DNA from: a phage
DNA: 64,000 nucleotides
Sequence record: NC_135730.1
Strand: one strand, 5' to 3'
Shown: positions 28,889-64,000 of the stretch, one piece after another
Layout: each line of letters opens with the position of its first letter
Numbering within the stretch: position 1 is the stretch's first letter
Position numbers and translations under genes: made by a program
Notes under the pieces: model-generated
Seen by the model: only the letters and a program-made list of their open reading frames with translations
Told to the model about the DNA's origin: nothing
Database searches by the model: none

Positions 28889-29203
28889 CTACCAGGTTAC
28901 TGTCAAGTAGGCAACCGTATTATTTTTCTCTGGGGAGATCCCAACAACATCTACCTGCAGACCTCCTGCCCTTAAATCTCCAACAATGTGCGGGAAGTAA
29001 TCTGAGAGATGCGAGGGTAGATTTATCGAAAATCCGCACCCCAGAAAGCCTGCTAACGCTTTATTTTGTATCTCCCCTACAATCGCATCATAAATGGAGT
29101 TAAGCTCGTCAGGGAGCGTTACAGGGCGTTTTAGCGCTAGCTGGTGTAATTTGTCCTTAGCACTCATTTTCATTTCAGGTCTACCTCTGGGGGTGCCAAC
29201 CAC
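28889..29203 (-). CDS. hypothetical protein
   Basis: 104-aa track ORF. Confidence 0.55.
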   Translation of the reverse strand: MVGTPRGRPEMKMSAKDKLHQLALKRPVTLPDELNSIYDAIVGEIQNKALAGFLGCGFSINLPSHLSDYFPHIVGDLRAGGLQVDVVGISPEKNNTVAYLTVTW

Positions 29204-29703
29204 ATAAACGGCGGCAAGTCTAAACGGTTTTTCTTATCCCACACAAAATATGCATATGCTTGCCCGTCAGTTCTGCCGTTTGATTGAAATGATGGACGCT
29301 TAGATATTGTGATCACAGTAGTAGGTGCATTATCAAGCCACCATTCAAATCTGGCTTTGCTTTCCAGAAAATTAAGACGCAAAAGCATAATAACTACGTC
29401 AGCATCTTTCAACGCCTTGTCTACAAACTCACGAGCCAGGCTGTATGGTGGGTTGGTGATAATACAGTCAACATGGTTGTATTCTGTATTCAGATAGTCA
29501 ACACCTTCTTGTATTTCTCCCCATGCAGATCCTAACGGCATACGGGAGTAGAACACACCTGAGGCACTATTCCTGCAAGGCTCTAAGTAGGTCCAGTCTT
29601 CTGGGAACGGAATAAGGTCATACAGCCCTTCTGCACACCACTCCGGTGTCACATACTCATCGTAGGCGTTACGTTGTTCATCAGGTTTTCTAGCACAAGT
29701 CAT
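29170..29703 (-). CDS. DNA N6-adenine methyltransferase
   Basis: catalytic motif IV CIITNPPY. Confidence 0.65.
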   Translation of the reverse strand: MTCARKPDEQRNAYDEYVTPEWCAEGLYDLIPFPEDWTYLEPCRNSASGVFYSRMPLGSAWGEIQEGVDYLNTEYNHVDCIITNPPYSLAREFVDKALKDADVVIMLLRLNFLESKARFEWWLDNAPTTVITISKRPSFQSNGRTDGQAYAYFVWDKKNRLDLPPFMWLAPPEVDLK

Positions 29704-29754: not shown

Positions 29755-30804
29755 TTAAGCTTCTTCGACAATTCCTGCACCCAGGATTTTTTCATTGAGC
29801 TCTTTTGCTGTTTTAATAATATTGTCCACCAGACGCTTGCGAGTCTTATCTTTCACCTTAACCTCTTCACCGCCGTTCAGAGTAGTCTTCAATTGAGACA
29901 GAATATCCTGAAGTTCAACGACAGAGAATCTCTGCAGATCTTCTGAAGTAATCTCACCCAGGGCAATTCTGACGGTCTCGCCACTCTCCATCTGCAGATT
30001 CAGGAACACAGTGTGAACATCACCTTTCGAACCACCCGCTTTTGCAGATTCAACAGCATGAACTAACTCATCTAAAGATGTGCACTGGTGAATCTCCGGA
30101 AGACCTGCTTCACCTAACACGCCTTCTTCATCACCTTTTGCCAGAAGCTTTTTCGGTTTTTGTCCGTTCTGGATGCGTTGTATGTTGCCTTCATCCAGAA
30201 TAATAGCTCCAGTGCGTGCTGCCAGCTCTTCTCCGTCCAACCACACTTCGCCACCAGCTGTGATGGATGCGATCTCATCTTCTGTCAGCACCCCACCGTA
30301 GTATTTTTCGATCAGGCGTTCAAAACGTTTTTTCCAGTAGCTGACCTGAGTATTCATGTTCACACCGTTACCATAAGTGCCACCTTGATAGTAGTGGAAC
30401 ATAAACTCTGTGTCCGGAGCCACAGTACGTTCTTTACAACCAAGCCATAAGATTGTTCCAGCAGAGCAGCACATCCCTTCAGCATGTGCAACAACGCTTG
30501 CCTGAGACTCGCGGAATGCCTGCAAATACGCCATAGCAATGTGAACGCAACCACCAGGACTGTTAATGATTACACGGATACTTTCTTCTGGCTGAGCCAT
30601 ACGGATCGTCTGCAGACGAGACATATGATCTTGTAAGTCTTCCAAATCGTCGATATAAAGAACGTGGTCAACAACAGGTGTTGGGTAGCTGTATGTTTCC
30701 ATAATACCACCCGGCATACCAAACATTTTATTACTCATAGGTTCGAAACCGTTCTGTTTTTCTTTCATGCCGTGTACCATGGTGCTGCGAGGTGTTAAAT
30801 TCAT
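29755..30804 (-). CDS. ClpP-like serine peptidase (S14) with about 170-aa helical C-terminal extension
   Basis: SPGGCVHIAMAYL and GMCCSAGTILWLG resemble the ClpP active-site region; Lys/Glu-rich C-terminus. Confidence 0.6.
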   Translation of the reverse strand: MNLTPRSTMVHGMKEKQNGFEPMSNKMFGMPGGIMETYSYPTPVVDHVLYIDDLEDLQDHMSRLQTIRMAQPEESIRVIINSPGGCVHIAMAYLQAFRESQASVVAHAEGMCCSAGTILWLGCKERTVAPDTEFMFHYYQGGTYGNGVNMNTQVSYWKKRFERLIEKYYGGVLTEDEIASITAGGEVWLDGEELAARTGAIILDEGNIQRIQNGQKPKKLLAKGDEEGVLGEAGLPEIHQCTSLDELVHAVESAKAGGSKGDVHTVFLNLQMESGETVRIALGEITSEDLQRFSVVELQDILSQLKTTLNGGEEVKVKDKTRKRLVDNIIKTAKELNEKILGAGIVEEA

Positions 30805-30864: not shown

Positions 30865-31176
30865 TTATTTAGCAATCACTAGGGAATACTTACGATTGTC
30901 AGAAGCATCACAGCTCAATGATTGCCAGTCTACCACATACCACGTATCATTGTCAACAATTACTTTATCGCCTGTTCTGTAGCAGGTGCTGCTTTCAATA
31001 ATCCGAGACTCGATAAAGAATCTGTGTCGGCGCTCACGTAGCAACGCTAAGTTGATTATATTACCACCACTGTCCTTGATCCACACATTCTTGGATCCTT
31101 TATTTGCCAAAATTGTCTCGCCGTTATAGACAAACAGGCAGTATATTTTATTCAGTCTCTCTTGTATTGTAGCCAT
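30865..31176 (-). CDS. hypothetical protein
   Basis: 103-aa track ORF. Confidence 0.55.
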   Translation of the reverse strand: MATIQERLNKIYCLFVYNGETILANKGSKNVWIKDSGGNIINLALLRERRHRFFIESRIIESSTCYRTGDKVIVDNDTWYVVDWQSLSCDASDNRKYSLVIAK

Positions 31177-31231
31177 ACTATCTCCTTCTCCTTGTTTTGT
31201 CCGATAATAATACCTAAAGCTTATCTGTTTG

Positions 31232-32161
31232 TCAACAATTGTCTTCTAGAAACTCTACAATATCATGAGAGTACCAGAACCACTCCGTTGCCCCGTCGAA
31301 ACCTTCGAAGTGGCAGTTGCGATCTGCAAAGACTTTATGCACCAATTTTTCAAGCTGCATGGTAGCACACCCCTGCTCGAAAGTAAATACTTTAAGCACG
31401 TGAACAGGAAAATTTGTGTTCCTTCTTATGTTGTATAGTCTGCTCTGTAGATTGATAGTCACCCCAACTTTTATAACCGTGGGAATGGTAAGATCATCAA
31501 CAAGAAGGTACAGACAGCTCTCTTTAGTACTCTGCCTGAATCCTGAAGTAGAGCATTCTGGGCAACCGTTACCGCACAGGTGGTTTGCAGGCTGTTGAAG
31601 AAACTTACACCCGCAAGACTTGCAGATAATGGTTACAGGAGTGTGGGTATTCACATACTTCACTTCTGAATAGTCATATATGTCTCCGTGTAGTTGAGTA
31701 GCATCCTCTATGAATCTATCTTTAGACTTCCTCATCTTTTTAGCTGTCGCTCTTTTTCCACACTTGTAGCACCCACCAGCTAAATGATTTGCAACTGTCT
31801 GCTTGAACTCTCCGTGGATGGGGCAAATAATAGTAACAGTGTCGTTCCTGTTAGAAAAACTTTTTACAAGAGAGTAGTCATACTTCCCCTTGTGCAGTTC
31901 TGTTGCCCTTTTTACAAACTCCTCCTTAGACATTCGGAATCTCTCACTTAACTCCCTGTTCTTACAATCTGGGCATCCTGCGCCTATAAGGTGAGACTTA
32001 GGAGTTTTACTAAAAACTGTACCACACTTGTTGCACACTATATTCACAGGTGTTGTGTTGTTTTTGTATACAACTTTGGAGTAATCATACTTGTCACCAT
32101 GCTTATCAGTAGCTTTCTTGATAAACACTTCTTCTCGTGATAACTGTTCTCCTAAACGCAT
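31232..32161 (-). CDS. putative free-standing homing-endonuclease-like protein (three Zn-ribbon repeats plus T5orf172/GIY-YIG-like C-terminal domain)
   Basis: three tandem repeats KYDYS...P(V)(N/T)I(V/I)C..CG..F...P..HL.G.GCP.C; C-terminal domain family named from memory. Confidence 0.45.
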   Translation of the reverse strand: MRLGEQLSREEVFIKKATDKHGDKYDYSKVVYKNNTTPVNIVCNKCGTVFSKTPKSHLIGAGCPDCKNRELSERFRMSKEEFVKRATELHKGKYDYSLVKSFSNRNDTVTIICPIHGEFKQTVANHLAGGCYKCGKRATAKKMRKSKDRFIEDATQLHGDIYDYSEVKYVNTHTPVTIICKSCGCKFLQQPANHLCGNGCPECSTSGFRQSTKESCLYLLVDDLTIPTVIKVGVTINLQSRLYNIRRNTNFPVHVLKVFTFEQGCATMQLEKLVHKVFADRNCHFEGFDGATEWFWYSHDIVEFLEDNC

Positions 32162-32202: not shown

Positions 32203-32997
32203 TTATAAACCTGCCTCAGGGGTCCACACACCTTTATTACGGTCAGTCATAAGGCCTAGTGCAAACAGTCTACCAATGCCTGAGCGAACCACATCTTCTG
32301 GCTCGTCAAAATCTACGATACCAACACCGTTGATTTCGTGCCTCGTTACAAAGTCGATCAGCCACTGAAGTCCTGAGGTGCCTTTGAGATCGTTCTGTCG
32401 TAAGTCTCCCATGCAAATCATTTGTGCATGCTCACCAAGCCGTGTGGCAATTGCCAAAGCCTCTGCACAGGTTGTCAACTGAAACTCATCAACTAGGATG
32501 ATGCAACGATCAGAGAAATCTCGACCTCGGATTGTTGCAACCTCTTGCACCTCGATGCGCCCAGTCTGACCGTCTCCCAATAACGTACTATAAGCACCAG
32601 GTCCGAGTCGTTTTTTGAGAGTTTCTAAAATTGATTTTAAGAAAGGTTCGTTTTTCTGTAATACACCTCCAGGTTTGAACCCCGTGCCATGGCTTCCACA
32701 TTCAACATTTGGGCGGCAAACAATAATTCTATCAATCTCGTTCTTACGAAGCAGGTCTGCAGCATAAGCTGCAGCCATAAACGACTTGCCTGTGCCAAAC
32801 AGCCCTGTTGCGATCACTAACTGTTTAGTTTTAAGAAGGTGGAGATAATACTCTTGTTTTTTATTCATCGGTCGGAGAGCTGGAGCTGTGTGCTCTCGTT
32901 CTTCAGCAAATTTCTCAGCAGCTTTACGCAGGCGATCAGATTTGCGAGCCTCTTTAGCTTCATCACGCATGCGTTTTGTTTCTTTAGCTCGACCCAT
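32203..32997 (-). CDS. phoH: PhoH-like ATPase
   Basis: P-loop ATGLFGTGKSFMAAA and Walker B ILVDEFQ in PhoH-like arrangement. Confidence 0.7.
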   Translation of the reverse strand: MGRAKETKRMRDEAKEARKSDRLRKAAEKFAEEREHTAPALRPMNKKQEYYLHLLKTKQLVIATGLFGTGKSFMAAAYAADLLRKNEIDRIIVCRPNVECGSHGTGFKPGGVLQKNEPFLKSILETLKKRLGPGAYSTLLGDGQTGRIEVQEVATIRGRDFSDRCIILVDEFQLTTCAEALAIATRLGEHAQMICMGDLRQNDLKGTSGLQWLIDFVTRHEINGVGIVDFDEPEDVVRSGIGRLFALGLMTDRNKGVWTPEAGL

Positions 32998-34147: not shown

Positions 34148-34210
34148 ACTGTACCTCCTAGCTCACTGTGTGTCAATAATATGCCACATCCTTGTGGCTT
34201 TTGTCAAGTA

Positions 34211-35206
34211 TCAGCAACCACAACTTCCGTAGTGCTTAACCCGTTCTATAACTTCCGCTTGCTTACCTTTATTGTAAGGACGGGAGTTTGGACTAGACAG
34301 GTACCCGGATACACGTCTGATCACACTGATCGTTCCCTCTTCATGGTTTCCACACTCTGGGCATACGAATCCCTTAGCTGTTGCACTGAACTCACCAGAG
34401 AAACCACACTTAAGACATTTATCCACAGGCTGGTTGATACCAAAATACATAATGTGTTTATATCCGAAATCAACAAGAGCTTCCAAAGCATCTAAGTTGT
34501 TTTTCAGATTTGGTGTCTCTACGTATCCGATGTTGCCACCAGAGGAGATCATAGCAAAACCTTCCTCATACTCCCACTTATCAAAAGGAGAGCTATTGAT
34601 CCATACTGGCTGATGGAAACTGTTGGTGAGATATTCATGCTCGTGCTTCAACACTTCAGGATATTCACGATCCAGACAGGTTGCAGCTTTATAGCATAGA
34701 CTCTCAGAAGGGGTGCCGTACAAGCTAAATGCTAGTCCACTTTCCTTCTTATATCGCTCACAAGCATCTTTCATGTGCTGAAGGATTCCAAGAGCTAAAG
34801 CCTTGTCACCCTCTCTGCCCAAAATCTGACAGGTTTCATACACACCAATATACCCAATACTGATGGAAGCGTACCCGTCATAGAAGAGTTTATCAATACT
34901 CTCTTCAGGATCCAGGCGAGCAAGAGCGCCTTCACACCACATGATGGGGTTCTGCCCTGCCTTTGTTCCTTTTAGACGGTTAACCCTTACAAGGTGAGCC
35001 TCGTATGCAAGATCTAAGTATTCGTCAAGAACTGCAAAGAAATCAACACCTTCCGTCTTAGCTTTTGCCGCAATCATTGGCAAGTTAAGGCTAACAACAC
35101 CCAAGTTGAATCTGCCAAGGTATTTCTCCTCGCCTGTTACAGGGTCGCTATATTTCGATAAGAAACTTCTACACATTATGTTCAGGGTGGTTCGCAAGTC
35201 CACCCC
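34211..35206 (-). CDS. nrdD: anaerobic ribonucleoside-triphosphate reductase NrdD, exon 2 (C-terminal part; 5' boundary approximate)
   Basis: glycyl-radical region RVSGYL and C-terminal Zn-ribbon CPECG...CGC; frame open upstream of the first track Met. Confidence 0.75.
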   Translation of the reverse strand, partial: GVDLRTTLNIMCRSFLSKYSDPVTGEEKYLGRFNLGVVSLNLPMIAAKAKTEGVDFFAVLDEYLDLAYEAHLVRVNRLKGTKAGQNPIMWCEGALARLDPEESIDKLFYDGYASISIGYIGVYETCQILGREGDKALALGILQHMKDACERYKKESGLAFSLYGTPSESLCYKAATCLDREYPEVLKHEHEYLTNSFHQPVWINSSPFDKWEYEEGFAMISSGGNIGYVETPNLKNNLDALEALVDFGYKHIMYFGINQPVDKCLKCGFSGEFSATAKGFVCPECGNHEEGTISVIRRVSGYLSSPNSRPYNKGKQAEVIERVKHYGSCGC

Positions 35207-35935
35207 CGCACCTTTACGTGCTGCTGCATGTTCCCATGCAGATCAGACTATATCTTCACACTTAGTGTGTCTACCATTTCGAGTGTCATCGGCTTACACC
35301 CTACACCGCTACATTCATCACGGTTAGTCGTTAGGCATTTCGTAACAGAACTCGTAATCATAGTTATTAGGCGCACCACGTTTCAGGATAGCAGATATTC
35401 TTTTTCTATCCACTCCTAAAACATCAGCACAACATCTCAGACTTTTAAAGTGGAAAACCTCACCAGTTAATTTGTTGGTGGCTTTCACACCGTGGCATCT
35501 TGTGTAAAAAGCATAACAGTTGTTGTTGTATCCTTCTTGCGTATTGTCTGGGCAAGCTCCCCACTCAAGGTTGTATACACTGTTATCTTTCCTGTTGTCC
35601 CCTTTGTGCTTAACATAGGGTAAATTGTCTGGATTTGGTAAGAACGCTTCAGCAACAAGTCTGTGAACCCTTAGGCAAACAGTCTTTTTGTTCTTGCGTA
35701 TCCTAACAAGACGGTAACCTGTGTTTATCTCTTCCCACGAATGAATAATTCTTTCATTTTCGTAGCGGGTGCAATAAACATTGCCCATCTCGTCAATTTC
35801 ATAACCTTCAAAATCACGAATTTGTTTTCTCATTTCAGGACTCCTCTTGGTCAGGAGTTCTGTTACGTTTAGCACGGGATTGTCCGTTCTGGAGTTTCCC
35901 CGTTTAGATAGATTTTACATGAGCAGTTATAGTTT
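35207..35935 (-). mobile_element. group I intron in nrdD (boundaries approximate)
   Basis: core elements on minus strand: P-like cuaAACGGGGAAAcucc, Q-like AAUCCCGUG, R-like AACGACUAA, exact S AAGAUAUAGUC; exon ends GGGU. Confidence 0.65.
35324..35875 (-). CDS. HNH homing endonuclease (intron-encoded)
   Basis: HRLVAEAF...VKHKGDNRKDNSVYNLEW HNH motif; lies between the two NrdD halves. Confidence 0.7.
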   Translation of the reverse strand: MLNVTELLTKRSPEMRKQIRDFEGYEIDEMGNVYCTRYENERIIHSWEEINTGYRLVRIRKNKKTVCLRVHRLVAEAFLPNPDNLPYVKHKGDNRKDNSVYNLEWGACPDNTQEGYNNNCYAFYTRCHGVKATNKLTGEVFHFKSLRCCADVLGVDRKRISAILKRGAPNNYDYEFCYEMPND

Positions 35936-37096
35936 ACCCATGCTCGTTACTTTGCCATCTGTCGAGCCTGTCACTTTACGATTTAGTGGAACAGAAACAA
36001 AGTCAGGATAAATCCGCTCTGCAGAGCATTCCAGAGCTAATCGTTTCAAATCATAGTTAGGATCTCCAGGGTTCATGTTGACACCCTCTTCTAGGAAGAA
36101 CAGCACTTTAGGGAACACAGGTGTGATACGTTCTTCACCAAGACCCATTTTGTGGACTTTCAAGTAATTTTTGGTAATCATTCTACCAAAGACCGAGGTA
36201 TCCAGACCTAAACTTAATGTGATGAATGGGGTTTGCCCGTTGACAGAAGTTAACGTATTGATTTGATAGAGTAAAGTCTGCATGCTGTCAAATACGTCTT
36301 TATCTGTCATCTGCATTGCAACAGTCTCAGCATCTGGCAACCAATGTTCCTGGCAAAATTTAAGGTTCTTCTCATAAGTCGCCTCAGCATACTGTGCCAG
36401 ATAATGATCAATATGGCTCATAGTCTGACCCCCATATTGAGCACTAGCTACCGCACTAGAGATTTGGCTAAGGATTGTTGTTGCAACCCCTATTGACTTC
36501 GGCTTACTGACATGGGCGTTACCAATGTTGAATCCGTTTTCCAACATATCTGGATAATTTACCAAACAACAGTTTGTTAACGGACTGATCAAGTAGTCAA
36601 GATCATGCACATGGATGAAGCCTTTATTGTGCTCTTCTGAGACACGGTCTGGCAGGATCTGTGTTGATGCAAGGTGTTTGCTAAGGATGCCTGCAAGCAG
36701 GTCACGATGAGTGTGTACATGATTGGTAGGCTTATTTGCGTTTTCTTTTGTAAATTCATCACAAGTTCGATCCAAGAAGCCACTAATATCTGCAAGCAGT
36801 TTTCCACCTGCCTCTCTGTTATTATCTCTTGTCTGTCTATACTGGATGTATTCTCTGGCTGCACATTTTAAACCCATATCCATAAGAGCATCTTCAACAA
36901 GGATATGGATATTTTTTACAGAGATCGTGCACTGGTCGGTTGGTAGATTGTTAGCAACAACTTCATTAACCGCACAAGCGATCCGGTAAGCTTCTTCTTC
37001 AGTATGTCCAGACTCAAGTAAGGCGGACTCTGCCGCCTTGATCACCTTAATTCCGTTATAGAACTCTTCTCTACCGTCCCGTTTTACAACTTTCAC
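35936..37096 (-). CDS. nrdD: NrdD, exon 1 (N-terminal part; track ORF reads through 3 codons to stop at 35927)
   Basis: N-terminal ATP-cone-like MKVVKRDGREEFYNGIKV; ends where intron begins. Confidence 0.75.
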
Positions 37097-37371
37097 TTTT
37101 TCTCTCCAAAACCATTCTTAACAAAAGAGATGAAATCGTCGGCACCGCCTATATGGATACTGTCAAGATCGCTTTCTAAGAAGATCTGCGGCAACGTTCT
37201 GGGGACGATTGGACTACACTTCTCAATAAGCTCTTCTTTTGTGTAGCCCTCGCCAAGTGTCTTATATACAAAAGGCAGACCTTTGCTGATTGCAAATTCT
37301 TTTGCTCTGACACAATGTGGGCAGTTATCCTTACCGTAAATGATGATGAAAAAAGATTTTTCGCAGCTCAT
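37093..37371 (-). CDS. glutaredoxin/NrdH-like redoxin
   Basis: CPHC active-site motif; 92 aa; between nrdD and nrdB. Confidence 0.75.
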   Translation of the reverse strand: MSCEKSFFIIIYGKDNCPHCVRAKEFAISKGLPFVYKTLGEGYTKEELIEKCSPIVPRTLPQIFLESDLDSIHIGGADDFISFVKNGFGEKK

Positions 37372-50702: not shown

Positions 50703-51173
50703 TCAATCAAGGACAACACCGCCTGCCTTTTTAAACACCTCGATCAACTTCTCAATCTTCTGTTCATGCTGACCATATCCAGCACCAGGTAACGAAGCCC
50801 AGCGGGAACGGCATTTATGGATAGCCTGGTGAATACGACCTTCATCAATATCATCGAGCGCCTTACACTCACGGATCAGTTGCAACGCAATCTTGTCCTG
50901 GCTGGCAGGTCCAAAATCTGGTAATCCTAGCTGTTTCATATAGTGTTTAGCAAACTTCTCCAAAATCTGGTAACGCCCAGCAGCAGAAGAGGTAAGTTTA
51001 GCATTTAGCTTAACGTAAACACCTGGATGCTTGCTGTAATCGCTGAACAGATTGCCACCGACTATGACATCGTATCCACGATCCTTGGTAGGTTGTCTAC
51101 CATTATCTGTGCCTTCTGAATATGCGATCATATCCAAGAAAGCTTTTCGTTGAACATTTTTATCAAGTTTCAT
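50703..51173 (-). CDS. endolysin, lambda R-like lytic transglycosylase
   Basis: QRKAFLDM...EGTDNGRQ...GYDVIVGG...AGRYQ...WASLPGAGYGQ closely parallels lambda R as recalled. Confidence 0.85.
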   Translation of the reverse strand: MKLDKNVQRKAFLDMIAYSEGTDNGRQPTKDRGYDVIVGGNLFSDYSKHPGVYVKLNAKLTSSAAGRYQILEKFAKHYMKQLGLPDFGPASQDKIALQLIRECKALDDIDEGRIHQAIHKCRSRWASLPGAGYGQHEQKIEKLIEVFKKAGGVVLD

Positions 51174-51296
51174 TTTTCATACTCTCCAGTTTACTCATAA
51201 CTAACCCGATCAACAACACTACACAGTGTGGTTATGTAGGTGCCGATTGAAAACCATCATTCAATTGGCTACCGTTACCTACTGAACCTTCCTACA

Positions 51297-52580
51297 TCAT
51301 TCAAGCACCTCCCAAGTATCTGGGTTAACATTTCGGACGCAGATACCGACAGGGAATTGGTAGTTGTTGTCTTCTGTCCTTGCTTGGTATTTGAAGGTGA
51401 CAAACTTGCCGATCATTTCCTGCATCCTGTCATAGCTACGCTCCTCGTGCGTGCCTTTCATCTTCATTTTAACAACAATACCTTCCTTGTCAACGCAGAT
51501 AAGAACACCTTCATCATTCTTATCTTTCTCAACGTCAATAACTTTCACCTCTGCGTCGTTGAACTTTTTCCATTTCAATGCTTCAGATGTTCGCTGACCG
51601 TACTCGTATTTACCGCAGAAATTACGCATGATAGTACCTTCATATCCTTCGGACATGAATATACCAACAGATTCTTCGCAATGATCAACTGTGTACGCAA
51701 GCTCTGCGTCAACAACCTTGATATGGTCAAGCATCAGAGTGGTAACGGTATCCTCTGCATCCATAAGATCCTTGCAGCGTCCAGACTCTGTTTCTGGATC
51801 CCACCACACCTTGTCGCTAGGAATATCAAAAATGTGATACTCCAGATCGTAGCTACAGTATCCACCGTAACGCAAATCATCACGAACAGGCTCAACATCG
51901 ACAGGAATATCTACCTTGTTGAAGTTTTTGTATGTTGATAAGCCTGCCTTAATTGCTGCATGACGGCGTTTTTTATCTGCCTCATAGTCTTTATCGATCT
52001 CGGCCTGAATCTCTTCCTGTGTGCGCCACCGTTTAGCAAGAGACACTATTTTCTGCAAAGGAAGACCATGAATGTATAGTTCCCCATCAAGTTGTTTAAT
52101 CCCAGTGGTAGAATGGAAAGAACGAAGTTGCTCTAAAAGCTTTCCTTGAATAGGGTAGGACTTATTACCACGGGAAATAAATTTAGGCTCACCATTTTGG
52201 AAAACAACAAGCAGACGAAGGCCATCTAACTTACGCAAGATCCAGCAAGGTAATTTAAGTGCCTTGCCACGCTTCAGGTAGTCATGCACCAGCATAGGTA
52301 AAAGATCAACACCCTGCTCGCAATCTTCCATGTTTTCAACATACCCCAGACGGACTTGTTTTTCCCACTTGCTGATAGCCTCAAGCTCGGCCTGTTGCTC
52401 AGCTGTAGTCTCGTTGGCACGACCTACGTTTTTAGGTGTACATACCGTCTCTTTGTACTGCAATTTACCGTCAAGCTTGCCAAACTCTACGATAACCTTT
52501 TCGCCATCAGTGAATACTTTCCACTGTTGGTAGCTGCCATCTTTGTTCAGTGCGTACAGTGTTGTTTTGATTTGATGCAT
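51297..52580 (-). CDS. ATP-dependent DNA ligase
   Basis: adenylation motif I KLDGLR; 427 aa. Confidence 0.8.
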   Translation of the reverse strand: MHQIKTTLYALNKDGSYQQWKVFTDGEKVIVEFGKLDGKLQYKETVCTPKNVGRANETTAEQQAELEAISKWEKQVRLGYVENMEDCEQGVDLLPMLVHDYLKRGKALKLPCWILRKLDGLRLLVVFQNGEPKFISRGNKSYPIQGKLLEQLRSFHSTTGIKQLDGELYIHGLPLQKIVSLAKRWRTQEEIQAEIDKDYEADKKRRHAAIKAGLSTYKNFNKVDIPVDVEPVRDDLRYGGYCSYDLEYHIFDIPSDKVWWDPETESGRCKDLMDAEDTVTTLMLDHIKVVDAELAYTVDHCEESVGIFMSEGYEGTIMRNFCGKYEYGQRTSEALKWKKFNDAEVKVIDVEKDKNDEGVLICVDKEGIVVKMKMKGTHEERSYDRMQEMIGKFVTFKYQARTEDNNYQFPVGICVRNVNPDTWEVLE

Positions 52581-56087: not shown

Positions 56088-56497
56088 TGTCTAAAATGCT
56101 ATATATCGTGCGTGGTCTACCAGGGTCTGGCAAATCAACACTGGCAAATGCGCTATCTTTAGACGGTCTGTATCCACATTTTGAGAACGACATGTTCTGG
56201 TACGACGATGATGGAAATTATAACTGGGGTGCAAGTAAAGTAACACTTGCAGCAAAATGGTGCAAAGATAACGTAGAAGATATGATGCGTATGGGATACG
56301 ACCGTATCGTGGTAAGTAATACGTTTACAAAAGAAAAATATGTGCAAGAATATATTGACATGGCGATCAGTCATGGGTATAGTTATACCGTGATCGTGGT
56401 TGAAAACCGCCATGGTAATAAAAGCATTCATGATGTTCCAGACAGGGTTGTGGATCGTATGGAACGCCAGCTTAAAAACTGCATTAAACTTAAATGA
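56088..56497 (+). CDS. polynucleotide 5'-kinase-like P-loop kinase
   Basis: GLPGSGKST resembles T4 Pnk kinase domain GCPGSGKST; ACGGAGGA RBS. Confidence 0.6.
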
Positions 56498-56504
56498 GGA
56501 ATGT

Positions 56505-57059
56505 ATGAAATACTTTGTAACAAGCGACACACACTTTCTCCACCAGCGGGTCATGGAGTTCGATTCATGTCAAAAACACAGATCTCAGTATGATCACAAT
56601 CTTGACAGTATGAATGCGGGAATCATCACCAAGTGGAACTCTGTTGTGTCACCTGCAGACACTGTGTTTCACTTGGGAGATATTGCGTGCACTAATGATA
56701 AGAATATCAACAAATTGCTCCCAGATGTTCTAAATATGTTGAACGGACATATTATTCTTGTTCGTGGTAACCATGACACAAGGACGACTGTCAGAATTAT
56801 GAAAGAGTTCGGTCATGAGGTTGTAGATTATTACGAGCTTCGCCACAACAAGAATTTGATCTGTATGAGCCATTACCAGTTTGCAAAGTGGAACAGAAAG
56901 CCTCACGGATCAGTCCAACTGTTCGGTCATGCTCACGGAACCACACAGCAGTTGTTTGGCAGGCAGTTTGATGTCGGTTGGGATGTGTGGGGGAGACTCT
57001 TACCATTGGAAGAGGCATACCGTATTGCAATGAGTCTTGCTATTGACAGCGGGGAGTAA
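56505..57059 (+). CDS. calcineurin-like metallophosphoesterase
   Basis: ATG at 56505 (MKYFVTSDTHF) within track ORF; GDI, GNHD and HAHG metal-binding motifs. Confidence 0.7.
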   Translation: MKYFVTSDTHFLHQRVMEFDSCQKHRSQYDHNLDSMNAGIITKWNSVVSPADTVFHLGDIACTNDKNINKLLPDVLNMLNGHIILVRGNHDTRTTVRIMKEFGHEVVDYYELRHNKNLICMSHYQFAKWNRKPHGSVQLFGHAHGTTQQLFGRQFDVGWDVWGRLLPLEEAYRIAMSLAIDSGE

Positions 57060-57106
57060 TCCCTGCTATTTTAAAGAAAATTGCCACACAAGGAGAATCA
57101 GGAGAT

Positions 57107-57457
57107 ATGAAAGATGGGGATAAGCTGCTATATCTTAAAGTCCCCCTTGAAATACTGTCTATGTCAAAAGTTTTGAATGACACAACTGGGGAGGTTGTTG
57201 TTCTTGACTTATATGACAAGATCGTATACTGCTACCTGCACAACTGGTATAAGCTTGGAGGAAATTCACGCTTCACACCCAGCACAAGGAAAATTGCAGC
57301 AGATGTTGGGATAAAGAAAACAAAAGCAGCAGCGTGCGTTAAAACTTTAGAATGTGCAGGAGTGGTTGAAATATCCACACAAGGGAGAGGTAAAAGATGT
57401 ACATTTTCCAAAGTTTTGCCACCAGAAGAGGTTATTCGAATGTCAACAACTGGTTAG
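57107..57457 (+). CDS. hypothetical protein, possible DNA-binding protein adjacent to iterons
   Basis: 116-aa track ORF; CAGGAGA RBS. Confidence 0.55.
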   Translation: MKDGDKLLYLKVPLEILSMSKVLNDTTGEVVVLDLYDKIVYCYLHNWYKLGGNSRFTPSTRKIAADVGIKKTKAAACVKTLECAGVVEISTQGRGKRCTFSKVLPPEEVIRMSTTG

Positions 57458-61627: not shown

Positions 61628-61911
61628 GAGTTGCTGCACTGTTTATTGTGTGCTTTTTATTATGTGGGTGTGCAACCAGCGTTGAGAGAGAATACAAGAT
61701 TGACCCTCCAGATGTAGGAAGGTTGATTGTTAAACCCCCGGAAGGTGCCATGAAACCACCTGCTAAAGCTATGCCTTTGAAGAAAGGTGCTCCAGATGCA
61801 GTAAATTCTGGCATTATGAGGGATAATAATTTGTCTTGTAGCAATGATAGAGCTAAATTGATCATTTTGCAAGACTATATTAGAACACTGTTTCCAAAGG
61901 AGAGAGGTTAA
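61624..61911 (+). CDS. o-spanin (Rz1-like lipoprotein)
   Basis: signal plus lipobox FLLCGCATS; Pro-rich mature region. Confidence 0.6.
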   Translation: MRVAALFIVCFLLCGCATSVEREYKIDPPDVGRLIVKPPEGAMKPPAKAMPLKKGAPDAVNSGIMRDNNLSCSNDRAKLIILQDYIRTLFPKERG

Positions 61912-62336
61912 TGTCTAAGATTTACGGACCGTGTTCTGAAAAGCAGAAGATGATCCTCGAAAACGATGCAGATATTTTGGTAATCGGCGGTGCCGCAGGG
62001 TCTGGCAAGTCGTTCCTCTTGCAGTTGATGCCGCTTAAAATTATTGATGACCCCCACAGCTCTGTGGTTATGTTCCGAAGAACAACCCCACAGTTGGAAG
62101 GTGAGGGTGGGCTATGGCCTAAAGCAGTAGCTATTTATAGTGATCTGCCTGAAAACATTAAGCCAAAGTTCAGAGAGAAGGATCATAAGTTCATTTTCCC
62201 ACGGTTTGATCCGAGCACTGGCAAGTGGGATAGAAGCAAAAAGGGAGCTGTTGTAAAATACTGCCACATGGAGTATGTCCAAGATAAGCTTAACCATCAA
62301 GGTCTTGAGTACACCATGGTTTGCTTCGATGAGGGT
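61911..62336 (+). CDS. terminase large subunit, exon 1 (ATPase domain)
   Basis: Walker A GGAAGSGKS, Walker B MVCFDE; ends at intron 5' splice site. Confidence 0.8.
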
Positions 62337-62653
62337 TAATTTGTAGCTCTCGTAAAACCTCCCTAATTGCGGGGAAATCTTTACTATTAATACCACCAAC
62401 CTGTCATGGTAACATGATAGAGGCTTCGAAGAGAGATCGAAGGTATGGTAACAGTGTGTTAATTTAGATAATCCGCAGCGAAGCATCCGAGAGGATGAAC
62501 GTTCAACGACTAGTCGAAAGACGTAGAATCAAGCGATTCGAAACGGGAGGGTAAGCGGTTGTTGTCGCTTATAAGATATAGTCTGGTCTGCATGGAGACA
62601 TGCAGCTGCCTGAAAAATGGCGGGGCAAGACTAGCGACCTTGCCCGAACATAG
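62337..62653 (+). mobile_element. ORF-less group I intron in terminase large subunit gene (3' boundary +/- 3 nt)
   Basis: all four core elements in order: P AAUUGCGGGGAAA (about 62364), Q AAUCCGCAGC (about 62470), R GUUCAACGACUAG (about 62501), S AAGAUAUAGUCU (about 62573). Confidence 0.75.
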
Positions 62654-63778
62654 ACGACACAATTCGAATGGGAGCAGATAGACTATCTGATGTCTCGTCT
62701 GCGATCTCAGTCAAAGTATCCATCAAGAATGGTTATCAGCTGTAACCCCGATTCAGAACACATGCTTGCCAAACTGGTTAGATGGTGGTTGGACGATGAA
62801 GGGTATCCAGATCCGGAGAAATGCGGTAAGAAAAGATATTTTATCCGACGCGACGGTGAATTTATATGGGGAGATTCTAAAGAAGAGTTGATAGAGAAAT
62901 ACACCACGGTTAACGGACTGGGTGTGGAGATCAAGCCAAGACCGTTGTCATTCTCGTTTATAGGCGCAACAATATTCGATAATCCTGTTTGCTTAAGAGA
63001 CAACCCAGAATACCTTGCTTTCCTTGAAGGTCTGCCGGAACTGGAAAAAGCTCAGCTTCTTCATGGTAACTGGTTTGCAAAGCCTGAGGGTGCAAACTAT
63101 TTTCAAAGATCTTTCCTTCGTGATGCCGATAGAGTACCCCTTGGATCAGTATCTTGCAGGGCATGGGATAAGGCAGGAACCGAGAGAACTTCCGGTAATA
63201 AATTTCCTGACTTTACCGCCAGTATTAAGGTAAGTAAAGATAGCGACGGCTTTTATTACCTGTCCGGTGATTATTGTCCTGAGAACGTGGATGACGGGAG
63301 GTATTCCACAGGTCTGGAAGGCAAGTTCTGTAAAAAGGCTGGTGAACGAGATGTGATCATCAGGAAACAGGCGCAGTTTGATGGTGATGATTGCATAATC
63401 GTATTCTCTGTGGACCCTGGTCAGGCAGGTAAGAGTGAGTTCTTAACCTCATCCAGATCCTTGCTTGCCGAAGGGTTCAGGGTTGAAGAAGACCCAATGC
63501 CTTCCAACAAGTCTAAACTGACAAGGTTCTCACCTTTTGCCAATCTTGCCCAACAAGGAATGGTGAGGATTGTAAAATCCAGTTTCCATCCTGATACTCT
63601 GGAAGCATTTCTGACTGAACTTGAAAAATTCAACGGGGAAAGATCAACATTTAACAGAAAAGACGACTGGGCCGACTGTGTAGCTTCTGCGATTAATTTC
63701 CTAGAGAAAGAGGAGGTAGCACTTCCTTGTGTGATTCCATCAATCTCATCACCTTCTATGTTCAAGCGTTTTATCTAA
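62654..63778 (+). CDS. terminase large subunit, exon 2 (nuclease domain)
   Basis: frame open from 62654; nuclease-domain region IVFSVDPGQAGKSE; track ORF begins at internal Met 62690. Confidence 0.75.
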   Translation, partial: TTQFEWEQIDYLMSRLRSQSKYPSRMVISCNPDSEHMLAKLVRWWLDDEGYPDPEKCGKKRYFIRRDGEFIWGDSKEELIEKYTTVNGLGVEIKPRPLSFSFIGATIFDNPVCLRDNPEYLAFLEGLPELEKAQLLHGNWFAKPEGANYFQRSFLRDADRVPLGSVSCRAWDKAGTERTSGNKFPDFTASIKVSKDSDGFYYLSGDYCPENVDDGRYSTGLEGKFCKKAGERDVIIRKQAQFDGDDCIIVFSVDPGQAGKSEFLTSSRSLLAEGFRVEEDPMPSNKSKLTRFSPFANLAQQGMVRIVKSSFHPDTLEAFLTELEKFNGERSTFNRKDDWADCVASAINFLEKEEVALPCVIPSISSPSMFKRFI

Positions 63779-63878: not shown

Positions 63879-64000
63879 GTGTCCAAAAAGAACCGCAGGA
63901 AACACAACGCCACAGCCAAAACTGTGAATAAATCTGGGAACGCAGGCGCACCAACTCATAATGTTCGTATGAGTGAGATCGGTTCTGGCGCACTTTCCCA
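63879..64000 (+). CDS. hypothetical protein, 5' partial at window edge (GTG start)
   Basis: GAGGGG RBS then open frame to window end; position after terminase suggests a structural gene. Confidence 0.35.
   Translation, partial: MSKKNRRKHNATAKTVNKSGNAGAPTHNVRMSEIGSGALS

Follow-up and report, generated by a model that had tools for sequence, protein, structure and literature searches.

The genome annotation of phage rV5 already names its open reading frame (ORF) 122 a ClpP protease subunit, and gp211 of phage ICP1, 326 amino acids (aa) in length, is annotated as a 'ClpP ATP-dependent protease subunit'. The gene family to which ORF 122 belongs is known and widely annotated; a literature search turned up no functional study of it, and no experimental work was found on phage ClpP homologues, ICP1 gp211 or PAK_P3 timing. 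Here the ORF 122 homologue present in a 64,000 nucleotide (nt) stretch of phage DNA from NC_135730.1, the whole of which is referred to as the window, is compared with these and other relatives. In the reading that we consider probable, although not strongly so, this gene encodes a non-structural, middle-expressed serine protease of the ClpP fold, which does without canonical docking to a Clp ATPase and is targeted or regulated by a family-specific acidic tail.

The window originates from an rV5-like Escherichia coli myovirus (Vequintavirus, Vequintavirinae), with the segment 28000-33000 showing 99.9% identity to phages SophiaRose and navn and 94-99% to some 120 further records. Plus-strand early and small-ORF regions are followed by a minus-strand block of ~39 kb, which includes PhoH, NrdDG, NrdAB, ThyA, and replication genes, and then by spanin genes and the gene of the terminase large subunit, with the portal gene entering the window for its first 40 codons. 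The ATG of the ClpP-like gene has a Shine-Dalgarno sequence, AAGGA, 7 nt 5' of it. Its product has a 100% identical counterpart in JES2013, named 'putative ClpP ATP-dependent protease subunit', and is matched along its full length, core and tail, by phrog_5410 'ATP-dependent protease' (E=4.9e-155, with aa 24-345 aligned to positions 4-322 of the 323 in the profile). There are 104 homologous clusters, nearly all of 300-378 aa, and many are located on contigs of 90-150 kb. The gene and the first two parts of its product are located as follows:

29755..30804, minus strand: ClpP-like protease gene, rV5 ORF 122, an intact ORF of 349 aa plus stop
30676..30804, minus strand: N-terminal region, aa 1-43, predicted to be disordered, with a predicted local distance difference test score (pLDDT) <50
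30160..30675, minus strand: predicted ClpP-fold catalytic core, aa 44-215, AlphaFold2 pLDDT ~90, with the handle helix at 147-169

The resemblance of the N-terminal part to ClpP, on which the initial annotation was based, is borne out by both sequence and model. Pfam CLP_protease (PF00574) matches aa 59-168 with E=2.1e-12 and 47.7 bits, against a gathering cut-off of 20.2. In the AlphaFold2 model, built on 39 family members, the protein has the three-dimensional fold of ClpP including the handle helix, and the core superposes on solved ClpPs; these make up all of the top Foldseek matches of the core in the PDB, with ~160-170 residues aligned, target-normalised template modelling (TM) scores of 0.65-0.7, and E of ~3e-10.

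The disordered N-terminal region carries two conserved motifs. Y40-P41 is invariant in the family, while F28-G29-M30 is a conserved hydrophobic-Gly-hydrophobic motif in which F28 and G29 are each present in at least 90% of the family; it reads FGM, FGF, FGY, or FGL in 13 sampled members and is placed 12-17 residues ahead of the first core strand. The motif bears a loose resemblance to the IGF/LGF tripeptide with which Clp ATPases dock, and the aligned ICP1 and phiTE homologues do not have it.

The catalytic residues of E. coli ClpP, in the numbering of the mature protein, are S97, H122, and D171. The codons aligned with these are:

30463..30465, minus strand: Ser114, the predicted nucleophile (motif G-M-C-C-S-A-G), aligned with E. 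coli ClpP S97
30394..30396, minus strand: His137, the predicted general base (motif F-M-F-H-Y-Y-Q-G-G), aligned with E. coli ClpP H122
30247..30249, minus strand: Glu186, at the position of the ClpP catalytic Asp171, on which the MAFFT and phmmer alignments agree

A check for a Ser-His-Asp triad by alignment, as had been suggested for this gene, finds the first two residues in place and a Glu rather than an Asp, a conservative replacement, at the third position. Ser114 and His137 are invariant in 39/39 family members and in the ICP1, phiTE, Mydovirus, and Pakpunavirus homologues. The oxyanion-hole residue Gly85, in an SPGG motif, is invariant in 39/39 and in the distant homologues that were aligned, and the Gly-rich substrate strand past the His is likewise invariant (Q140, G141, G145, G147, N149). 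Since Ser114, His137, and Gly85 do not vary, a maintained active enzyme would be expected here, not a decayed one. The third position is Glu in 4/39 members, those of the Vequintavirus type, and Gln in 35/39, and it is Asp or Glu in the homologues from ICP1, phiTE, and Pakpunavirus. A Ser-His-Glu triad is therefore plausible for the protein of this phage, as judged from the aligned sequences, with the family as a whole keeping only the Ser-His pair.

The pocket of E. coli ClpP that takes the IGF loop or acyldepsipeptides (ADEP) is one that we take to be lined by L23, L48, F49, Y60, Y62, F82, I90, M92, F112, L114, and L189; the numbering can be considered valid, since 11/11 of these residues match the E. 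coli ClpP sequence at the computed positions. Six of them are replaced by residues that are invariant in the family: L48 by Q65, Y60 by R77, F82 by E99, I90 by H107, M92 by E109, and F112 by T127. L114 is replaced by A or S at position 129 and L23 by Pro or His at position 43. F49 is mostly V or L in the family and Thr66 in this protein, Y62 is I or V at position 79 so that a hydrophobic residue is kept, and the mapping of L189 is an alignment artefact. At the sequence level, 6-7 of the 10 positions that can be mapped are polar or small, 6 of these being invariant and polar or charged; from Y60 onward, MAFFT and an independent profile alignment give the same positions. In the ICP1 and Pakpunavirus homologues, too, most of the pocket residues are polar.

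It would appear from these alignments that the ClpP-like protein is without the surface by which a normal ClpP docks its ATPase partners. The label 'ATP-dependent Clp protease proteolytic subunit' is doubtful for this protein, because the docking pocket is polar. The same observations bear on the suggestion that this is a true ClpP paralogue, using host ClpX or ClpA, or co-assembling with host ClpP rings, and in this way redirecting host ATP-dependent proteolysis. The name used in many GenBank records would fit such a role, as would the Pfam match, the solved ClpPs as best structural matches, the handle helix, and the presence in this phage of Ser, His, and an acidic third residue. However, the curated ClpP models are all missed (TIGR00493 at 33.2 bits against 308.6, PRK12553 at 39.2 against 228, PRK00277 at 38.2 against 249), the counterpart of the ClpP N-terminal region is proline-rich as well as being predicted to be disordered, and the pocket is polar as described. 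An invariant Gly185 replaces the Arg that adjoins the catalytic Asp in ClpP, an Arg which we take to be part of the ring-ring 'oligomerisation sensor'. In addition, no Clp-type unfoldase is annotated in phage AlexBoehm 1-99 kb or SophiaRose 71-116 kb, where the only related annotation is a MoxR-type AAA+ ATPase. A true ClpP paralogue is, taking both sides together, improbable.

The invariant polar surface at the site of the docking pocket can also be read in favour of a protein that mainly binds, as a ring-shaped decoy, a cap or inhibitor of host proteolysis, or a chaperone-like platform, with catalysis being weak or dispensable. Gln in place of the acidic triad residue in 35/39 members would agree with this, and so might the N-terminal FGM-type motif with its presumed likeness to the Clp-ATPase tripeptide, but that motif is not shared by the ICP1 and phiTE homologues. 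Against a mere binder, the invariance of Ser114, His137, Gly85, and the Gly-rich strand is the pattern of an active site that has been maintained, and we give this explanation a low probability.

By profile scores, the family is closer to ClpP-related phage head-maturation proteases than to cellular ClpP, in keeping with the comparison to prohead proteases in the initial annotation. The best NCBIfam model is NF045542 (ClpP-related head maturation protease) with 60.4 bits, the core scores 79 bits against phrog_1684, and the profiles phrog_1684, phrog_94, phrog_2976, and phrog_133 are matched at E=1e-14 to 1e-21; the clpP model TIGR00493 reaches 33 bits. The ClpP-like family probably descends, on these profile matches, from a branch of the ClpP-related head-maturation proteases. 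This, and the fact that a protease followed by a tail is a common architecture among prohead proteases, would suit a head-assembly protease encoded away from the head module, acting in the procapsid beside or instead of an XkdF-type protease and with a tail that targets the capsid or is scaffold-like. The NF045542 score, however, is below the cut-off of 120, and the ClpP-like gene is 31 kb from the terminase and 33 kb from the portal, on the opposite strand and within a replication and nucleotide-metabolism unit. That the gene lies far from the terminase (large subunit at 61911..63778, plus strand) and outside the structural module had been pointed out before and is correct. Only the start of the head module is within the window:

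63879..64000, plus strand: first part of the portal gene, with which the head module opens, the first 40 aa being identical to the AlexBoehm portal

In AlexBoehm, the genes next to the portal on its downstream side encode, in order, a 'prohead protease' of 139 aa, a 'head scaffold protein' of 325 aa, a decoration protein, and the major capsid protein. The AlexBoehm prohead protease (bas56_0005) is matched by Pfam PF14550 Peptidase_S78_2, of the XkdF type, with 65 bits against a cut-off of 24, and belongs to phrog_1530; the scaffold-like protein is phrog_2970, and the capsid protein matches Phage_cap_E. At least 110 Vequintavirus records contain this portal-to-capsid module, and the XkdF-type protease is at least 99% identical in 117 records. 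It had been allowed that the ClpP-like protein might be a standard prohead protease whose structural genes simply lie outside the window. Those genes do lie outside it, but in the relatives they come with an XkdF-type protease of their own, which occupies the slot between portal and capsid.

Published virion proteomes agree with this. The phrog_1530 protease and the phrog_2970 protein were both detected by mass spectrometry of W70 virions (PMC11370258), and the homologous 'prohead core protein protease' was detected in CB7 virions (PMC7344957), so that the XkdF-type protease has been seen in the virions of two related genera. The ClpP-like protein is not listed in the CB7 virion table (PMC7344957), nor in the W70 table (PMC11370258), although whether W70 carries a homologue was not checked, and the 19 proteins detected in rV5 virions do not include ORF 122. 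The ClpP-like protein is probably not the prohead protease, because the head module of the relatives has its own XkdF-type protease and because the W70, CB7, and rV5 virion proteomes are without the ClpP-like protein. The tail, described below, is likewise without similarity to scaffolds. A head-assembly role for the ClpP-like protein is, on this evidence, unlikely.

The C-terminal half of the protein had been described as a Lys/Glu-rich, helical, scaffold-like tail. It is divided as follows:

30022..30159, minus strand: flexible linker, aa 216-261 (~46 aa), poorly conserved, pLDDT <50 for 222-240 and 258-263
29758..30021, minus strand: acidic C-terminal domain, aa 262-349, family-specific, predicted as a beta-hairpin and three helices, compact at 265-343

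The enrichment in Lys and Glu is real but modest (21.5% in the C-terminal half, 12% in the N-terminal half), and instead of a long helical scaffold there is a linker followed by a compact acidic alpha/beta domain. A helix at aa 244-257 within the linker is an insert confined to Vequintavirus-type sequences. The domain modelled alone has a pLDDT of 82 and is acidic across the family, with a median isoelectric point of 4.3 and a net charge of about -9. Its residues F293, E297, and R322 are invariant in the family, from which it can be taken that the domain is under constraint.

This domain is restricted to the family. A search with the tail profile, made without a word index, against 1.84 billion cluster representatives returned 7 proteins at E <=0.001, all of which are family members or seemingly spurious repeat proteins, the latter being two large repeat-rich sequences (P0107, P0108) with weak matches. 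Nothing significant was found for the tail in Pfam and no convincing match in the PDB, while the sole significant match in BFVD is a 303-aa member of the same family. A scaffold-like tail can be rejected, there being no scaffold match in the PDB or BFVD and no resemblance to the scaffold-like head protein that this phage group itself encodes; the scaffold or capsid-targeting extension that would be expected of a head maturation protease is not seen. A nucleic-acid-binding tail of the HeH/SAP/Rho-N type, considered for the pattern F-x3-E-L-x2-I-L ... R-x2-L-I, is rejected as well, since the Pfam matches are marginal (HeH and SAP each match one member only, E=0.06-0.11) and the domain is acidic. 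The tail of the phiTE homologue is only marginally related (hhalign E=2e-4, probability 46%), and that of ICP1 gp211 has no detectable homology to the family tail (hhalign probability 0.35%). The tail may be a family-specific module for protein-protein interaction or regulation, held on a flexible tether.

The genes around the ClpP-like gene, and a candidate promoter, are:

29170..29703, minus strand: DNA methyltransferase-like gene, directly downstream, phrog_799 E=8.1e-67
30865..31176, minus strand: 103-aa ORF, the rV5 ORF 121 homologue, upstream, phrog_5456 E=3.4e-39
31207..31235, minus strand: sigma-70-like promoter 5' of the ORF 121 homologue, TTGACA, 17 nt spacer, TATTAT, an 11/12 match to the consensus and nothing further
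31232..32161, minus strand: homing endonuclease of the T5orf172/GIY-YIG type with treble-clef zinc-finger repeats, phrog_681 E=5.6e-67
32203..32997, minus strand: PhoH-like ATPase gene, Pfam PhoH E=1.3e-43, a conserved upstream neighbour in Vequintavirinae and ICP1

The initial annotation placed the ClpP-like gene between a DNA methyltransferase and a homing-endonuclease-like gene, and both are present, but the 103-aa ORF intervenes before the endonuclease. This ORF is probably co-transcribed with the ClpP-like gene. Matches of the methyltransferase-like gene to the Pfam Dam and EcoRI-methylase models are weak and below the cut-offs. Here PhoH and the ORF 121 homologue are separated by the inserted endonuclease gene, whereas in rV5 PhoH is followed by ORF 121 directly. 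Most Vequintavirus genomes are without the endonuclease, covering 68% of the 5-kb query in two pieces. The 103-aa ORF is called a 'putative PhoH-like protein' in SophiaRose, a label that looks like annotation carry-over, since there is neither a Pfam match nor a PhoH match for this ORF here.

The placement of the gene, which had seemed odd, is the same in three genera of the Vequintavirinae as well as in ICP1, and annotations have shown it from the rV5 genome onward. The order PhoH, phrog_5456, (phrog_7224), ClpP-like gene, methyltransferase is kept in Vequintavirus, Mydovirus, and Certrevirus, and the methyltransferase is in the same order in VIK251 and phiTE. In ICP1 the order is PhoH (gp208), an HNH endonuclease, a 60-aa ORF, and the ClpP-like gp211. 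A small partner ORF that is conserved universally can be rejected, phrog_5456 being conserved within Vequintavirinae and the upstream ORFs of ICP1 and Pakpunavirus being unrelated to it. The synteny of phrog_5456 is weak evidence of functional coupling, because it is limited to one subfamily.

With regard to timing, rV5 has an annotated sigma-70-type promoter, P121, at the equivalent position 5' of ORF 121, and rV5 ORF 122 is in the transcription unit of genes 82-163, separate from the late unit of genes 27-81. In ICP1 the nucleotide-metabolism subset gp176-gp211 peaks at 12 min and the capsid cluster gp122-126, including the protease gp125, is late (PMC7567579). This separation of gp125 from the gp176-gp211 block also argues against a head protease. 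The XkdF-type capsid protease gp125 of ICP1 is 40% identical to that of Vequintavirus, and as ICP1 has both gp125 and gp211, two distantly related lineages share the combination of an XkdF-type protease encoded in the head module with a ClpP-like gene near PhoH in the metabolic block. In the ICP1 transcriptome study, host clpS and clpA are among the entries of the supplementary differential-expression table, with mild up-regulation (PMC7567579).

In the reading that we favour, that of a non-structural ClpP-fold protease, the enzyme would be expressed along with the replication and nucleotide-metabolism genes and would act in the cytoplasm of the infected cell rather than inside the procapsid. 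The core, aa 44-215, would assemble a ClpP-like ring with Ser114 and His137 in its active sites and Glu186 replacing the Asp of ClpP. ClpX or ClpA would not be docked through the canonical hydrophobic pocket, and the enzyme would therefore be independent of Clp ATPases or would use a different partner surface. The acidic C-terminal domain, on its linker of ~46 aa, may select substrates, bind a partner protein, or regulate access. Candidate substrates would be host proteins, including defence proteins, and phage proteins.

Several points weigh against this account. The Gln at the third triad position in 35/39 members may mean that catalysis is reduced or altered in most genera. The pocket comparison is one of aligned sequences. 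The top curated profiles are those of head-maturation proteases, which makes a head role possible by sequence. The head module has been verified in AlexBoehm and other Vequintavirus records, and is represented in this phage by the portal start only. The rV5 virion data are shallow, consisting of 19 proteins, and missed the XkdF protease as well. The negative mass spectrometry is weak evidence and is compatible with a head protease, since mature virions have often lost their prohead protease. The ICP1 timing statement gives a gene range in which gp211 is not named, and the supplement has no gp211 entry (PMC7567579). For the protein itself, we infer its oligomeric state, catalytic activity, independence of Clp ATPases, timing, tail role, and substrate.

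A further suggestion, which must be regarded as very unlikely, is that the ClpP-like protein is a phage counter-measure against the host Clp machinery or against protease-sensing immunity. In this case the seven disordered FGM motifs of a ring would mimic the IGF loops of ClpX and ClpA and dock into the hydrophobic pockets of host ClpP, which would be capped or deregulated, with the acidic tail recruiting specific targets. Alternatively, it could be the ClpP-like protease, and not the head protease, that trips or evades a protease-sensing cyclic-oligonucleotide-based antiphage signalling system (CBASS; PMC12991175). According to a preprint, a protease-sensing CBASS operon (EcCdnG) restricts the Vequintavirinae Bas48-59 even when the T4 gp21 cleavage motif is mutated (PMC12991175). 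There being apparently two unrelated proteases in these phages, this report makes it a concrete question which of them is sensed. There may be further peptidases, AlexBoehm (MZ501048.1) having an annotated 'putative metallopeptidase' of 486 aa at 51016-52476 and a MoxR-type AAA+ ATPase at 56124-57308; if this annotation holds, there would be at least three predicted peptidases per phage.

As the gene family is known, the discovery is a modest one. What is new here is the separate head protease, the docking pocket that is not conserved, the Glu or Gln at the third triad position, and the tail restricted to the family. Annotators should not take the ClpP-like gene for a head-maturation protease, nor should a partnership with ClpX or ClpA be assumed, because the docking residues have not been kept and the scores fall far below the curated ClpP cut-offs. 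The gene is conserved across widespread enterobacterial myoviruses of ~135-150 kb that are used in phage therapy and biocontrol, and other phages, ICP1 and Pakpunavirus among them, have counterparts of it.

Other features of the window and of the related records were seen in passing. The terminase large subunit gene (61911-63778, plus strand) is split into ORFs of 142 aa and 362 aa by ~350 nt that are absent from AlexBoehm, where there is a single terminase large subunit of 515 aa. The insert contains a complete group I intron at 62327-62605 (Rfam RF00028, 84.1 bits against a gathering score of 50, E=7.8e-22), and there is no endonuclease ORF inside this intron. Terminase introns have been reported earlier in rV5 (Kropinski et al. 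2013). NrdD of SophiaRose is annotated in several pieces with a GIY-YIG nuclease gene between them (about 34200-37100 of the window, minus strand), which suggests a second homing-endonuclease or intron insertion in the NrdD block. Among the GenBank records, 19 unannotated 'Campylobacter phage' entries (MG0656xx), mostly with Campylobacter jejuni as host, are 98-99.9% identical to E. coli rV5-like phages in the region around the ClpP-like gene, and their assignment to Campylobacter looks doubtful.

Of the systems described so far, the rV5 ORF 122 group, phrog_5410, is the nearest, and its members in JES2013, SophiaRose (SophiaRose_125), PVP-SE1, and phiTE (phiTE_141) are the same gene as the ClpP-like gene here. 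They share its neighbours, the ORF 121 homologue upstream, the methyltransferase downstream, and PhoH nearby; unlike the rV5-type locus, that of this phage has the T5orf172/GIY-YIG endonuclease between PhoH and the ORF 121 homologue. Within the group, proteins of the Vequintavirus type stand apart in having the extra linker helix, and Glu instead of Gln at the third triad position.

ICP1 gp211 has a similar ClpP-like core, in which the triad is Ser, His, and Asp, and a similar location near PhoH, two ORFs downstream of it in a nucleotide-metabolism region, in a genome with a separate XkdF-type gp125. It differs in the sequence of the core (~36% identity), in the intervening ORFs, which are unrelated, and in its tail, which is not detectably homologous. 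The Pakpunavirus homologue is short, at 182 aa, and is without both the tail and the PhoH neighbour.

Cellular ClpP (MEROPS S14; E. coli ClpP, PDB 1TYF/1YG6) shares the fold, the handle helix, the positions of Ser and His, the SPGG oxyanion motif, and the Gly-rich strand. Compared with it, the phage protein is only ~20% identical, has Glu or Gln for Asp, a polar docking pocket, and a disordered N-terminal region, and is extended by ~135 residues at the C-terminus. The ClpP-related head maturation proteases (NF045542; phrog_1684, phrog_94, phrog_133), which share the architecture of a protease with an extension, are probably the nearest branch, but the ClpP-like protein scores below their cut-off, is encoded outside the head module, and has a tail unrelated to scaffolds. 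The XkdF-type protease (AlexBoehm bas56_0005; ICP1 gp125) is also a predicted serine protease of the same genomes, of an unrelated fold family. Encoded between the portal and the scaffold-like gene and found in W70 and CB7 virions, it is more likely than the ClpP-like protein to be the protease of capsid maturation in these phages.

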